This document shows positions 91 to 5,937 of a stretch of DNA of 20,000 bases, one piece after another. The translations under genes and the position numbers were made by a program. Position 1 is the stretch's first letter; each line of letters opens with the position of its first letter. The stretch is taken from sequence record SRR2962707_940; one strand, 5' to 3'. Below the pieces are notes generated by a model. That model had not been told where the DNA came from. It saw only the letters and a list, made by a program, of their open reading frames with translations, and ran no database searches.

Positions 91-118
91 AAAATGGGTG
101 CCTTTCGGCACCCATTTT
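91..118. terminator. Bidirectional intrinsic terminator between the convergent mscS-like and NCS1 genes
   Basis: Perfect 12-bp inverted repeat AAAATGGGTGCC-TTTC-GGCACCCATTTT with A/T tracts on both sides, between two convergent stop codons. Confidence 0.85.
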
Positions 119-145: not shown

Positions 146-1570
146 TTACTTCTTGGTGATCACGTAGTAGACGAGAGCGCCCAAGGCTGCGCCGATCACC
201 CAAGAGAAGCCGGATAGGAAACCAAGCGCTGGCATCCAAACGGTTGCAATTGAGAAGATCGCAGGCAGGATGAAGGCGATAAGCGCTTTCTTGTTCCAGC
301 CATTGTCGTAGTAATATGCGCCGTCTTCTGAGGCAGAGAACAATTGCTGCACATCCAATTTGCCATGCTTGATCATGTAATAATCAACAATCATGATGCC
401 GTAGACCGGCGCCAAAATCGCACCCAGCGTGTTCACGAAGTTGAAGATACCGATCTGGCTGATCGTTGAAACCCAAAGGCCACCAATGACAAGTGCAAAG
501 CCAGACGTGATCAGACCTCCAACGCGGAAGTTGATTTTGCTCGGCATTAGGTTTGCCAAATCATAGGCTGGTGGAATGAAGTTCGCCACGAGGTTGATAC
601 CAACGGTTGCGGCAAAGAACATGATAGCTGCGATCAATGTTAGAGGCAGAGAATCAACACGCGCGATAATATCGGTTGGGTTGGTAAGTGCCTCACCCCA
701 GATGGCAACGGTTCCCGCTGTCACGATCAATGCGATCAGTGAGAAGAATGCGATGTTGAGCGGCAGGCCGGTAAAGTTGCCTTTTTTCATATCGCCTTGT
801 GTTTTTACAAAACGTGAGAAGTCGCCATAATTGATCACCACGGCTGCAAAATAAGCAATCATCGTGCCGACAATAGCAAGGAATGCGGAGAATGATCCGC
901 CGTCATAATTGCCTGTGCCTTTAAAGATCGTACCCATTTCAGACATCAATCCACTGCCTGCTTTTACCCAGATGACAACCGCTAGGATGATCATGACGAG
1001 ATAAACAAACGGTCCTGCAAAGTTCAGGAATTTGGTGATCCAGTCGATACCGTTCCAGAAAAGCCAGATTTGGAACGCCCAGACAGCCAAGAACGAAATC
1101 CAATCAATGCCGCTCATGCCCAAGAACACGGGGGCACCATTACCGCCCATCAAAGAGCTTAGAAGCAACGCAACCGCTGTCGATGCGAAATAAGTCTGCG
1201 CTCCATACCAAAAAATCGCGACAATCGCGCGAACGATAGCAGGAAAGTTAGCGCCCTTGACGCCCATGCTGGCGCGCGCCATCACAGGAAATGGGATGCC
1301 ATATTTTACGCTTGGCTCACCCATCAGATTGACGAGCCACATCACGAATAGACCGGCCAACATAATGGCCGCAAAAACAGTCCAGCCATTAAGGCCATAA
1401 GATAAGAACAAGGAAGCAGCGAGCGTGTATCCAAACAAGCTCTGCACATCATTGGCCCAGACGTTGAATATTTCGAACCAGCCCCATGTTCGTTTTGATT
1501 TTGGTATTGGTGCCAAGTCTTCATTATATAGACTCGGATCTTGTTTTACGATGATTAGATCGTCGCTCAT
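146..1570 (-). CDS. NCS1-family nucleobase:cation symporter (allantoin/uracil/cytosine permease-like)
   Basis: 474 aa, highly hydrophobic. NCS1 motifs LYNEDLAP..RTW, KYGIPFPVMARASMG, INYGDFSRF, NLVANFIPPAYD and IVDYY. SD-like GAGGGG upstream of the ATG. Confidence 0.92.
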   Translation of the reverse strand: MSDDLIIVKQDPSLYNEDLAPIPKSKRTWGWFEIFNVWANDVQSLFGYTLAASLFLSYGLNGWTVFAAIMLAGLFVMWLVNLMGEPSVKYGIPFPVMARASMGVKGANFPAIVRAIVAIFWYGAQTYFASTAVALLLSSLMGGNGAPVFLGMSGIDWISFLAVWAFQIWLFWNGIDWITKFLNFAGPFVYLVMIILAVVIWVKAGSGLMSEMGTIFKGTGNYDGGSFSAFLAIVGTMIAYFAAVVINYGDFSRFVKTQGDMKKGNFTGLPLNIAFFSLIALIVTAGTVAIWGEALTNPTDIIARVDSLPLTLIAAIMFFAATVGINLVANFIPPAYDLANLMPSKINFRVGGLITSGFALVIGGLWVSTISQIGIFNFVNTLGAILAPVYGIMIVDYYMIKHGKLDVQQLFSASEDGAYYYDNGWNKKALIAFILPAIFSIATVWMPALGFLSGFSWVIGAALGALVYYVITKK

Positions 1571-1597: not shown

Positions 1598-1676
1598 TGC
1601 ACGATACTCTCCACTGAACTAAAATCGTGCATAACTCCGTGCAAAATTCGAGCATAAATTTGTGGGATGTGTCAAG
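1598..1676. promoter_or_regulatory. Divergent control region with CG(T/A)GCA repeats and a candidate -35 box for the NCS1 gene
   Basis: Inverted repeat TGCACGAT (1598-1605) / ATCGTGCA (1624-1631). Direct repeats CGTGCA (1626), CGTGCA (1638) and CGAGCA (1649). CTTGAC on the minus strand at 1676-1671; the -10 match is weak. Confidence 0.45.
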
Positions 1677-1703
1677 AAGATTCAACTGGGAGGGGATTTA
1701 CTT

Positions 1704-2255
1704 GTGAAGATTGGCTACGCGCGCGTTTCGGCCAAATGGTATCAAAGTGAGATACAAGTCAGCGAACTTGAACGCCAAGGCTGCGATAAGATTTGGAAAG
1801 AGGCGAACCTTGAGGATGAACATCCAGACAAGGCTTTGAAGAGCTTTCTAAAACAAGTATCAAAAGGCGATACGGTGGTGGCGACACGGCTGACTTCTGT
1901 TGCCCATTCGCCTGCAGAATTGCTTCAGCTTATGGAAAAAATTCATAAAAAAGGTGCATTTTTTCGCTCACTTGCAGAACCTTGGGCCGACACCAGCGTG
2001 CACGGTGGTGCGCGGGTGATTGATGCGATTCGCGGCATGATTGATTTTGAGATCGCGATTGCTGATGCTGAAAGCCGCGTTGAAGAAAACCGCCCACAGA
2101 GCTTTGGCTTGTCGCCCGGCAGACCGCAAAAGCTGAAGGAACAGCGGAGGATGCAAGCAATATCGCTCTTAAAGATTGGCAAATCAGCGGCAGAAATTAG
2201 CCGCGTGCTCGGCGTGAGCAGAAGCACGATTTCGCGGCTGCGCAAAAATATGTAA
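1704..2255 (+). CDS. Serine recombinase (resolvase/invertase) family protein with C-terminal HTH; catalytic motifs degenerate
   Basis: Start moved to GTG 1704 (purine-rich SD GGAGGGG just upstream), giving MKIGYARVS... and 183 aa. Family motifs GYARVS, GDTVV, RSLAEPWADT, GRP and the HTH KSAAEISRVLGVSRSTISR are present. The canonical LDRLxR reads LTSVAH. Confidence 0.85.
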   Translation: MKIGYARVSAKWYQSEIQVSELERQGCDKIWKEANLEDEHPDKALKSFLKQVSKGDTVVATRLTSVAHSPAELLQLMEKIHKKGAFFRSLAEPWADTSVHGGARVIDAIRGMIDFEIAIADAESRVEENRPQSFGLSPGRPQKLKEQRRMQAISLLKIGKSAAEISRVLGVSRSTISRLRKNM

Positions 2256-2259
2256 GCGC

Positions 2260-3144
2260 CTAGTTCAGCACAATGTCCAAGCCTATATCGAGCGTTGGGG
2301 CAGCCATAGTGATTTTGGATGTTGAAATATAATCAACGCCAGTTTCTGAGATCGCTTTGATGGTCGCAATATTCACATTGCCGGAGGCTTCAAGTTTGAC
2401 CGCGCCGCCATTATCGGCCTGATTGATGGCAACGGCTTCGCGCAATTGATCGTTGCTCATATTGTCGAGCAAAATAGCATCGGGCTTAGCGCTGAGCGCT
2501 TTGCGCATCTGATCGAGATTATCGACTTCAATTTCCACTTTGACCATATGGCCGACATAGGCACGGGCATTTTCAACCGCCTCAGCCACGCCGCCAGAAA
2601 CAGCGATATGGTTGTCTTTAATCAGGATTGCATCATCCAACCCATAGCGATGGTTGGAACCGCCGCCGCAGCGCACAGCATATTTTTCAAATGTGCGTAA
2701 GCCCGGAATGGTTTTGCGGGTGTCGCAGACTTTCGCCTCGGTATGCGCAATTTCTTTGGCAAATTCAGATGTATAGCTCGCAATACCGCACATATGCATG
2801 AGGAAGTTGAGTGCCACACGCTCTGCAGAAAGCAATGCACGGGCATTGCCTCTAATACGGGCCAATTCATCACCGGGCTTTACGGCATCACCGTCTTTTA
2901 CAAGCGCTTCAAAAACGATGTTTTCATCCATCAAACGAAACGCTGTTTCGGCGACCAGCAAGCCGCTCACATAACCTGCATCACGCGAGGCCATAACAGC
3001 GGTCGCAGTCGTATCAGGGGCAATCGTCGCATTGGTTGTGATGTCACCAGCGCGGCCTAAATCTTCCAGCAAAGCGGCGCGGACAGCCTCTTCAACCATC
3101 AATTTTGGTAAGAATGGTGGCAACGCTTTGTTTGCGGCGGTCAT
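2260..3144 (-). CDS. nadC: Nicotinate-nucleotide diphosphorylase (carboxylating), quinolinate phosphoribosyltransferase
   Basis: Motifs EDLGRAGDITT, DTRKTIPGLR, NHRYGLDDAILIKDNH, EIEVD, LLDNM and EASG. Third gene of nadABC. Confidence 0.98.
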   Translation of the reverse strand: MTAANKALPPFLPKLMVEEAVRAALLEDLGRAGDITTNATIAPDTTATAVMASRDAGYVSGLLVAETAFRLMDENIVFEALVKDGDAVKPGDELARIRGNARALLSAERVALNFLMHMCGIASYTSEFAKEIAHTEAKVCDTRKTIPGLRTFEKYAVRCGGGSNHRYGLDDAILIKDNHIAVSGGVAEAVENARAYVGHMVKVEIEVDNLDQMRKALSAKPDAILLDNMSNDQLREAVAINQADNGGAVKLEASGNVNIATIKAISETGVDYISTSKITMAAPTLDIGLDIVLN

Positions 3145-3147
3145 GGC

Positions 3148-4698
3148 CTAGCCTCTCATTAATTGCGGTACAATCGCTTCTGCTTGCTCTAATGTCAGCA
3201 AAGTGCGGCGTTTCCATGCCGGATCTTCCATTGGAAAATCCGTGCGCGCATGGCCGCCGCGGCTTTCTTCACGGTTCAATGCACACACAGCAATCATTTT
3301 CGCGGTGGTGATCACATTGTCAAAACGCACGGAATGGCTTTCGCGCTGCAGCATTAATATCGCTTCCAGCGCATCGCGCATCCCTTCGCCGTCACGCAGT
3401 ACGCCAAGGTTAGAGCTCATGACATGGCGCAAGGCAGTCATGTTTGGGTGATCGGTGTGCGCGAAATGCTCATCGGTTTCAACTGAACCTGCCTGCCAAT
3501 TGGCCGGTGCATCAGGTAAATCCATCTCGCTGAGCGCATCGGCAATACGCGCAGAAAACACCACGGCTTCAAGCAGTGAGTTAGAGGCCAAACGGTTTGC
3601 GCCGTGTGCGCCTGTTGATGTGCATTCGCCGCAAGCCCAAAAACCTGGCAATGATGATTTGCCATCAATGTCAGTCCAAATGCCGCCCATAAAATAATGC
3701 GCTGCGGGCACAACTGGGATCATTTCTTTAGAAGGATCGATGCCTGCGTCTTGGCAATATTGATAAACGGTTGGAAACTCTTCGGCAAAATTCGGTACCG
3801 CTTCACGGCAATCCAAAAATGCGCCGCGCCCTGATTTTACTTCTGCAAAGATTGAACGAGCAACCACATCGCGCGGCGCCAATTCCAAATCCTTGTGCAC
3901 GCCTTCCATAAAGCGCACGCCTGCCTTGTTAAACAGTTTAGCGCCATGGCCGCGCAGTGCTTCGGTGGCCAGCGGCGCTGGGTCTTCACCCACATCAATC
4001 GCCGTTGGGTGAAACTGCACAAATTCCATATCAGCAAGGCGTGCCCCTGCCCGTGCGGCCATACCAATGCCGCCGCCGCGCGCTTCAATCGGGTTCGTTG
4101 TCACCTCATAGAGGTGGCCGATACCGCCGGTTGCCATAACCACATTTGAGCCATCAATGCGGATTAGCTCTTCGCCGCGCCCTGCATTATCACGGGCAAT
4201 CACGCCGGTGACTTTGCCATCTTCAGACACGAGATCTTCAACCACATAGCCTTCAAGCACGCGGATCGACGGTGTTTTTTCAACCGTTGCGACCAATGCC
4301 TGCATGATAGCGCGGCCTGCGCGGTCGCCTTTCACGCGCACAATCCGGCTTTCAGAATGAGCGGCTTCTCGGCTTGTGGCCAATTTGCCTTCCAAATCGC
4401 GGTCAAATGGCACGCCATATTCCAGCAAATCGTGAATACGGTCTGCGGCCTCTGTCGCCATCGCGGTAATCACGGCCTCATCGACAATGCCATCGCCCGC
4501 AACAATCGTGTCATGGACATGGCTTGCAATGGTGTCACCCTTGCCAACAGCAGCAGCGATACCCGCTTGCGCCCATGCAGAAGAAGCGCCGCGTCCAATG
4601 GGCGCAGCGGCAAGAACGGTAACAGCTTTTGGGGCTAATTTTAACGCACAGAAAAGGCCAGCTAATCCGCCGCCAATAATAAGGATGGGTTTTGTCAC
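3148..4698 (-). CDS. nadB: L-aspartate oxidase
   Basis: FAD-binding [64 protein letters not shown] and REESRGGH. The GTG start overlaps the nadA TGA stop. Confidence 0.97.
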
Positions 4699-5765
4699 TG
4701 CTTTAAATTCACCATGCGATCAACCGCTTTACGTGCGCGGGCCGCCAGCGCTGGATCCACATGGATCTCTTCTTGCATTTCACACAATGCGTCCAAAATT
4801 TTCGGCAATGTGATGCGTTTCATATGTGGACAAAGATTACACGGCTTGATGAATTGAACTTCAGGCACTGAGCTTTCAATATTACCAGCCATAGAGCACT
4901 CGGTCACAAGCAACACTTTAGCTGGCTTATTATCGCGCACATAATTGATCATGCCTGAGGTCGAGCCGGTATAGTCTGACACGGCGACAACAGATGGCGG
5001 GCATTCTGGATGCGCGATGATCTGAATTTCTGGGTCCGCTTCCTTATAGGCCAAAAGTTCTTCGGCGGTAAAACGCTCGTGAACTTCGCAGTGGCCTTTC
5101 CAAGTCAGGATTTTAACATTGGTTTGCGCAGCGACGTTTTGTGCCAAAAACTCGTCTGGAATACAAAACACCGTATCAACGCCGAAGCTTTCCACCACTT
5201 GGACAGCGTTTGAAGACGTGCAGCAAATATCGCTTTCGGCCTTCACATCAGCAGATGTGTTCACATAGGTAACAATAGGCACACCTGGATTTGCTTCGCG
5301 CAGCAAGCGCACATCTGCACCGGTGATTGATTCGGCCAGTGAACAGCCTGCTTTCATATCCGGAATAAGAACCGTCTTTTCTGGATTGAGCAGTTTTGAC
5401 GTTTCTGCCATGAAATGCACACCGCATTGGACGATGATATCGGCGTCCACTTTTTCCGCTTCAATCGCCAATTGCAGGCTATCGCCCGCAATATCGGCCA
5501 CGCAGTGGAAGATTTCTGGCGTCATGTAATTATGCGCAAGAATAACAGCGTTACGCTGCTTTTTCATTTTATTGATCGCATAGACATAGGGCGCGTAGAT
5601 CGGCCATTCGATCTTTGGAATGTGGTCTTTGACCTTCTCGTAAAGATGCGCGGTTTCGCGCTCAACTTCTTCGTTCCACACCAATTCAGGGCGCGGTAAA
5701 ACACCGTAGCGTTCAGCCGCTGTTTTTGGGCTGGTTGTATCTGTCGATGTCGAAACTGAGGTCAT
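4695..5765 (-). CDS. nadA: Quinolinate synthase A ([4Fe-4S])
   Basis: Motifs [42 protein letters not shown] and CPHM. Start placed at ATG 5765 (SD GGAG upstream) rather than 5840. Confidence 0.97.
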
Positions 5766-5937
5766 AACTCGCTCCATAAAAACTTGCGCAATGCGCCTTA
5801 CACAATGACATAAACACTGCAATGAGCGCGTGCAAGCCACATGCCGCTAACAAATTAATTCAACGCTGCAATCAGAAAAATTCAATTGCTATTGCAAAAG
5901 CAAAAAGCCAAACTTTGCCAAAATGGAGAGAGGCTTC

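Follow-up and report, generated by a model that had tools for sequence, protein, structure and literature searches.

Within a 20,000-nucleotide stretch of DNA from sequence record SRR2962707_940 (hereafter the window), we identified an intact gene at positions 1704..2255 (+ strand) whose 183-aa product is a homologue of the small serine recombinases, in which the fold and the DNA-binding elements are kept and the arginines that activate the scissile phosphate are lost. The same losses mark a clade of proteins of single origin, whose genes, in the ten loci compared, evolve under purifying selection and adjoin a divergent NCS1-family transporter gene across a conserved row of direct repeats. We consider it likely that this protein is a resolvase with only a TnpR-like repressor role left, regulating the NCS1 transporter gene as well as itself; its most likely function is that of an on/off switch of the paired transporter gene.

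Domain organisation and predicted fold

The frame opens with GTG and runs without interruption, with a Shine-Dalgarno-like GGGAGGGG at 1688..1695 (+), 8 nt 5' of the start codon; an uninterrupted frame with a good Shine-Dalgarno sequence had been described in an earlier reading made from the bare letters (the sequence-only reading). Alignment revealed that all homologues begin at MKIGYARVS, which argues that 1704 is the real start and not GTG 1662, where a longer alternative frame opens. The motifs cited in that reading were all found: GYARVS, SAKWY, NLEDEHPD, GDTVV, T64-S65-V66-A67-H68, RSLAEPWADT, FEIAIADAESRV, GRP and a helix-turn-helix (HTH). The protein is laid out as a former catalytic core (residues 1-100), helix E (103-127), the GRP arm (139-141) and the HTH (146-182).

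A comparison with the Pfam Resolvase and HTH_7 models, proposed at the time as a check, placed both domains above their gathering cut-offs: the N-terminal Resolvase domain (PF00239) scored 50.9 bits (cut-off 23.3) and the C-terminal HTH_7 24.6 bits (cut-off 23.8), with matches to further HTH models, among them HTH_23 at 38.2 bits. NCBIfam gave recombinase matches below threshold only, and a protein atlas look-up returned generic recombinase clusters and nothing more specific. By phmmer, the solved structures closest in sequence were Gin (4m6f; 53 bits over residues 1-177) and gamma-delta resolvase, to which the window protein is about 22-24% identical.

Structure prediction, likewise suggested earlier, recovered the resolvase fold. 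An AlphaFold2 model built from the clade alignment A2 (predicted local distance difference test (pLDDT) score 81.2, predicted template modelling score 0.59) displays a beta-alpha core, a long helix at residues 103-127 corresponding to helix E (pLDDT about 91) and a three-helix C-terminal domain. Foldseek matched this model to 39 PDB chains at E <= 0.001, led by gamma-delta resolvase bound to site I (1gdt_A, E 4.7e-11), with Tn3 resolvase at site III (5cy1/5cy2) and Sin at site II (2r0q) among the further leading matches. Fold and domain order (core, helix E, arm, HTH) are those of Tn3/gamma-delta TnpR (1gdt, 5cy1), and GYxRVS, GDT(L/V)V and GRP are held in common with the Gin/Hin invertases (4m6f, 3uj3). 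Taken together, these results confirm that the window protein is an intact small serine recombinase homologue with a C-terminal HTH.

Catalytic residues lost and kept across the clade

Residues were mapped through phmmer alignments to Gin and gamma-delta resolvase, together with MAFFT alignments with canonical relatives; Tn3/gamma-delta numbers are given in brackets. The window protein keeps Y5 (Y6), R7 (R8) and S9 (S10), the last being the nucleophilic Ser of the family's G-Y-x-R-V-S motif, as well as E33 (D36, kept as Glu) and E116 (E118). Elsewhere the expected residues are replaced, with Y13 at Q14, L36/E37 at S39/G40, T64 at D67, I117 at R119 and, where small serine recombinases carry their two arginines, S65 at R68 and H68 at R71; an equivalent of R125 is missing as well. 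TnpR differs from the window protein in retaining Arg at R68 and R71 along with Q14, S39, D67 and R119, and the Gin/Hin invertases differ in having DRLGR and an ER...ERT helix E.

According to excerpts of Olorunniji & Stark 2009 (PMC2794168), Y6, R8, S10, D36, R68 and R71 are crucial in Tn3 resolvase, mutants at R68 and R71 being severely defective, and mutants at D67, S39, E118, R45, R119 and R125 have substantial activity left. Because the D67, S39, R119 and R125 mutants remain substantially active, the decisive losses in the window protein are those of R71 and of R68, the arginine in contact with the scissile phosphate; at the other four crucial positions the residue is retained (Y5, R7, S9 and E33). 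The sequence-only reading had held D67, R68, R71 and R119 to be needed for catalysis, a view that the same excerpts support for R68 and R71 and contradict for D67 and R119. We infer strongly from this pattern of substitution that the protein is catalytically dead.

We then counted these positions in the 59 rows of A2 and in the 49 canonical-side proteins of the tree described below. Arg at R68 is present in 0/59 clade proteins compared with 49/49 canonical ones, and Arg at R71 in 5/59 compared with 49/49. The other positions behave alike: Gln at Q14 (0/59 and 49/49), Asp at D67 (0/59 and 46/49), Ser at S39 (2/59 and 46/49), Arg at R119 (1/59 and 46/49) and Arg at R125 (2/59 and 48/49). An intact DRLxR in the closest homologues, which had been named beforehand as telling against the proposal, was thus not what we found. 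The clade nevertheless retains Tyr at Y6 in 56/59 members, Arg at R8 in 57/59 and Ser at S10 in 58/59 (Ala in P0054 only), and equivalents of Q19, D59 and E118 are also kept. Two residues are newly fixed in the clade, W12 (59/59) and Y13 (58/59). Three members were flagged as 'odd' by a motif regular expression owing to N-terminal extensions; they too have W12.

The main competing explanation is a still-active recombinase with a non-canonical active site, in which Y5/R7/S9 and other residues would act on direct repeats, for example as a phase switch working through repeat-number change, excision or inversion. The retained nucleophile and the R8 and Y6 equivalents fit such an enzyme, as does the description of R71 mutants of Tn3 resolvase as 'not inert' (excerpts of PMC2794168), whereas the complete absence of Arg at R68 and the joint loss of seven conserved positions speak against it. 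Together with the evidence on sites and context given below, this leads us to regard continued recombinase activity as very unlikely.

A single origin and a surviving intermediate

Of 354 candidates from a word-indexed search, 108 proteins reached E <= 0.001. The same residue changes were found in 58 full-length proteins (P0002-P0059, 43-92% identical), making 59 with the window protein; P0061, a 114-aa fragment, was kept out of alignments and trees. In a maximum-likelihood tree of 108 rows, the 59 clade proteins form one side of a branch with a Shimodaira-Hasegawa-like approximate likelihood ratio test (SH-aLRT) value of 100, and the same branch received 97 in a 38-row tree. As reconstructed from these alignments, the trees show that the catalytic-loss clade has a single origin.

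The nearest canonical relatives (P0060, P0063-P0091 and a plasmid copy, L166) are 35-43% identical and have the same VSRSTISRL recognition helix and AEPWADT loop. Unlike the clade, they keep STxGQ, DRLARS and FER..I..RT, and they occur on plasmids.

An exhaustive profile search of 1.84 billion representatives gave three clusters at or above 232 bits, with the next score at 158.6 bits, a drop which indicates that the clade is small. One of these three clusters is P0111, a 188-aa protein with RWH in place of G-Q, a half-degenerate helix E (FEKNLATSQ) and the motif DQIARS, in which D67 and R71 are kept and R68 is gone. P0111 was placed by the tree on the internode linking the dead clade with the canonical proteins, and by its residues it looks like a surviving intermediate.

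Many other singleton relatives have catalytic residues missing as well. Several representatives of 50% clusters (P0143, P0148, P0151, P0155, P0163, P0199, P0234 and P0241) lack R8, S10, R68 or R71, and their HTH is still of the ISRL type. Catalytic residues may have been lost repeatedly in this part of the small serine recombinases, the present clade being perhaps one instance.

Purifying selection on all three domains

Nei-Gojobori distances were calculated on the coding sequences of the window gene and of nine more clade loci (45 pairs), the latter comprising L001-L006 from species genomes, L080 from a metagenome, and L164 and L165 from relatives of genome G002. The ratio of nonsynonymous to synonymous distances (dN/dS) was 0.036-0.338 in the 14 pairs with usable dS; in the other 31, synonymous sites were saturated and the proportion of nonsynonymous differences was 0.14-0.38. 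Individual values were 0.036 for L003-L004 (dS 0.59), 0.080 for L005-L080 (dS 0.78), 0.114 for L164-L165 (dS 1.27) and 0.227 for L002-L164 (dS 0.91).

When the five least saturated pairs were divided by domain, dN/dS was 0.03-0.18 in the former core, 0.01-0.28 in helix E and 0.02-0.21 in the arm and HTH. The resolvase-derived gene is under purifying selection in all three domains and, since the former core is as constrained as the HTH, the N-terminal domain has been retained for a reason. Selection for DNA binding only, as first proposed, is therefore too narrow a description: selection is seen, but it also holds the core, with Y5/R7/S9 kept in 56-58 of the 59 proteins.

A decaying pseudogene or an annotation artefact, towards which a Pfam score that is weak for a resolvase (50.9 bits) might point, is scarcely credible on these data. 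The frame is intact in 10/10 loci and the 59 proteins are of similar length; W12 and Y13 are specific to the clade; synonymous sites are saturated between genera; and the loci are 49-77% identical, which excludes assembly duplicates of one sequence. A dN/dS near 1, the mark of a young pseudogene and the other outcome named beforehand as damaging, was not observed in any of the 14 unsaturated pairs.

A two-gene chromosomal module with an NCS1 transporter gene

The gene divergent from the regulator gene in the window, and its presumed target, encodes a 474-aa NCS1-family transporter (146..1570, - strand; Pfam Transp_cyt_pur, 284.9 bits). The score of this protein stays under the NCBIfam allantoin permease cut-offs, and its match to the hydantoin permease Mhp1 is 81 bits. 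An NCS1 orthologue, 73-90% identical, divergently adjoins the clade gene in 9/9 other loci, so that the conserved NCS1 synteny that the sequence-only reading had proposed to look for holds in 10/10 loci with the window. The remaining neighbours are unrelated between loci and consist of varied chromosomal genes, with an rve-type ORF (open reading frame) downstream in L005.

The window itself is ordinary chromosome with housekeeping genes: its other genes include nadC, nadB and nadA, which converge on the regulator gene, an MFS gene, recO, era, rnc, lepB, acpS, spoT, rpoZ, smpB and dapA, and no transposase or mobile-element gene was found among the genes of the 20 kb, in line with what had been reported from the letters. 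The transposon, plasmid, phage or invertible-segment context usual for small serine recombinases was seen neither here nor in the nine other loci.

The distribution of the clade gene is sparse and patchy. It was found in 1/401 genomes of a class-wide sample (the centre genome only), in 3/41 relatives of G002 and in 1/41 of G001; a metagenome scan with generic search patterns placed 1/80 loci (L080) in the clade. The NCS1 orthologue occurs in exactly the same 3/41 relatives of G002 and is absent from the remaining 38, and NCS1 relatives that are 58-65% identical (L168-L170, from the class sample) lack both the regulator and the repeat array. The 72 matching plasmid records contained no clade member, their best identity being about 37%. 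Given the adjacency in all ten loci, the co-occurrence, the bare NCS1 relatives and the lack of plasmid copies, the clade gene and the NCS1 gene behave as a two-gene chromosomal module. The arrangement resembles that of TnpR, whose gene is also divergent from its partner with the presumed sites in a common intergenic region (excerpts of PMC7157771), except that the partner here is a chromosomal NCS1 transporter and that of TnpR is a transposase.

These observations bear on another alternative, namely that the protein binds DNA without being a local transcription factor and serves as an architectural or nucleoid protein, or as a decoy that poisons incoming resolvases through mixed dimers or occupancy of res sites. 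Conservation of helix E and the HTH would be expected of such a protein, and a recognition helix (VSRSTISRL) common to canonical relatives would suit a decoy; such roles would not account for a gene that is strictly paired, and co-occurs, with a single NCS1 orthologue. We consider this alternative unlikely.

Two side observations were made at these loci. In the Rhodobacteraceae-type loci L005 (3902-5320) and L080 (454-1872), the paired gene is followed in tandem by a second NCS1 paralogue (57% identity to the first). The L003 locus (uncultured alphaproteobacterium) and the L004 locus (a metagenome-assembled genome labelled 'Pseudomonas marincola') share a collinear stretch of 14.5 kb at a dS of about 0.4-0.6, and the 'Pseudomonas marincola' label is probably a binning error.

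A phased direct-repeat array in the shared intergenic region

Between the two genes of the window lies a candidate operator array of three in-phase direct repeats beginning at 1626, 1638 and 1649 (CGTGCATAA, CGTGCAAAA and CGAGCATAA; 1626..1657, +), with spacings of 12 and 11. A putative degenerate fourth repeat, TGTGGGATG at 1661..1669 (+), matches at 4/9 positions and stands in the register of the good fourth copy seen elsewhere in the ten-locus comparison, and a conserved GTCAA box follows at 1671..1675 (+). All ten intergenic regions carry CGTGCAWAA direct repeats with a strict 12-bp period, in 2-4 units, and then GTCAA; there are four units in L001, L002, L005, L080, L164 and L165, and two clear units in L003, L004 and L006. 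The 12-bp unit matches the footprint of one resolvase arm and HTH in the gamma-delta site I structure. GTCAA lies 29-33 bp 5' of the regulator start codon in 8/10 loci, 87 bp in L002 and 70 bp in L165; L002 has an inserted tandem duplication between GTCAA and the regulator start. Extra, weaker repeat copies were also noted in L003 and L004, about 70-110 bp from the NCS1 start.

A weight matrix made from the nine other loci ranked the window site at 1626(+) first of the three-unit chains in 20 kb, at 39.8 bits, with the next unrelated window site at 9.6 bits and a maximum of 13.8 over 50 shuffles. Single units with at most one mismatch are no more frequent in the window than expected (17 vs 18.3); the signal is the phased cluster, not the single unit. 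Across the ten regions, 42/45 matrix hits fell on the regulator's coding strand, a count that is circular for the nine training loci. No Rfam family matched in the window, which leaves a riboswitch or leader explanation of the intergenic conservation unsupported.

The array is confined to this locus. A two-unit pattern gave 13 matches in five genomes, six of them at the NCS1/regulator locus and seven scattered singly; no second array was seen in these genomes, G002 giving no pattern match as its units deviate. A decoy or architectural protein would leave this confinement to the shared intergenic region unexplained. CGTGCAWAA clusters were absent at canonical relatives with other HTH subtypes (L007-L021 and L081-L086), and no repeat motif was found at L125, the only other locus with an SxSTISR helix.

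The plasmid relative L166, from Xanthobacter dioxanivorans, carries 5/7 of the TGCAWAW matches of its locus within 66 bp (2360-2425), upstream of its recombinase gene (2453-3046), two of them, TTATGCAAAT and ATTTGCATAA, forming an inverted pair; in the whole locus 2.3 matches would be expected by chance. This cluster resembles the core of the clade repeats and hints that TGCAWA may be the ancestral half-site of the subfamily. It can also be counted in favour of a decoy or architectural role, as a plasmid relative has similar sequences just upstream of its gene.

Variation in repeat number from 2 to 4 among loci would fit a still-active recombinase that worked on the array. The half-sites, however, are head-to-tail and in the same orientation in 10/10 loci. 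In a limited, sequence-only test, no convincing inverted pair was found flanking the intergenic region, and no crossover-type recombination site (inverted half-sites in two copies) was found, only direct repeats. The inverted sites that surround an invertible segment in the Gin/Hin systems have no counterpart here, and the absence of a mobile context and of clade members in the plasmid records likewise argues against recombination.

A model for repression of divergent promoters

We posit that the window protein is a recombinase turned transcription factor, which would have kept the resolvase fold, helix E, the minor-groove arm and the HTH and would no longer cut DNA. If expressed, the protein would sit as dimers, or as a pair of dimers, on the 12-bp row of CGTGCAWAA between the regulator and NCS1 genes, with two dimers on four direct repeats overlapping both divergent promoters. 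Occupancy would then control both promoters, most likely by repression rather than activation. On the minus strand the GTCAA box reads TTGAC(A/T), possibly the -35 element of the transporter promoter, in which case the array could cover the transporter core promoter; promoter and operator would thus overlap.

Precedents for both parts of this model exist among working enzymes, which makes a repressor-only role plausible. TnpR autoregulates tnpR and tnpA from res, between divergent genes (excerpts of PMC7157771), and the Sin dimer on the head-to-tail repeats of site II docks its HTH domains there in a catalytically inactive geometry, with the serines far from the DNA (2r0q; excerpts of PMC2428073). 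The window protein might bind its repeats in a geometry like that of Sin at this non-catalytic site. The differences are equally clear: TnpR has three inverted-repeat dimer sites with a crossover site where the clade has 12-bp direct repeats, and Sin is a working enzyme at site I for which site II is only accessory, whereas the present system has lost the enzyme residues, has an array of up to four units and showed no equivalent of site I. The clade plausibly comprises resolvase homologues that depart from the enzymes in residues, sites and context and that would work like TnpR at res.

Several points weigh against this model. Retention of Y5/R7/S9 would be unexpected if the pocket were wholly roleless, and residual or altered chemistry is possible. 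Direct repeats are unusual for a symmetric HTH dimer, and between 1400 and 2400 a promoter scan found no match to the sigma-70 consensus. The weight matrix, being trained on the nine other loci, is circular for them. The synteny and operator counts rest on 10 loci only, among which L003/L004, L005/L080 and L002/L164/L165 are close sets, and they exclude the Vibrionaceae, Pelagibius and Sneathiella members (P0054, P0055, P0057 and P0046).

The retained pocket could also be accommodated if it had been rebuilt as a ligand sensor. Y5-R7-S9 together with the aromatic pair W12-Y13, which stands in place of G/D-Q, would bind the transporter's heterocyclic substrate, or a phosphorylated derivative of it, as effector, shifting the helix-E dimer and releasing the array. 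We put this forward tentatively and think it rather doubtful; if true, a recombinase catalytic domain would here have become the basis of a one-component transcription factor responding to a ligand, as one of several such domestications that arose independently.

In full-text literature, which did not cover subscription-only papers, we found no report of a host gene regulated by a catalytically inactive small serine recombinase, and a review of mobile-element recruitment, in the excerpts used, mentions active invertases and tyrosine resolvases only (PMC8987985). Public records call clade members 'recombinase family protein', 'DNA invertase' or even 'transposase'. Should the repressor model be true, such labels would be wrong for a whole conserved clade, site-specific recombinases being usually annotated by fold. 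It would also mean that a secondary repressor activity, such as that of TnpR at res, can become the sole function once the catalytic arginines go, with P0111 as an intermediate that survives. The compact protein-operator pair, in which a resolvase DNA-binding domain would bind four 12-bp direct repeats, would bear on how serine recombinase dimers read direct as against inverted sites, and the module draws attention to a regulated NCS1 transporter of marine Alphaproteobacteria that has gone unstudied.

Neighbouring features of the window

The stop codons of the regulator gene and the convergent nadC lie 4 bp apart (window 2255-2260), with no terminator-like hairpin between them; in this genome alone, transcription of the regulator gene could collide with that of the nadABC operon. 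A role of the regulator in the NAD (nicotinamide adenine dinucleotide) pathway, considered because nadC ends 4 bp after it, was rejected, since nadA, nadB and nadC are near the clade gene in 0/9 other loci. A perfect inverted repeat of 12 nt around a 4-nt loop (AAAATGGGTGCC / GGCACCCATTTT), at window 91-118 and just 3' of the NCS1 stop codon, is probably the terminator of the NCS1 gene. The longest frame of nadA (window 4695-5840) opens with GTG and carries about 25 extra residues that lie outside the match to the Pfam NadA model, which begins at residue 88; the real nadA start is probably one of the downstream ATGs.

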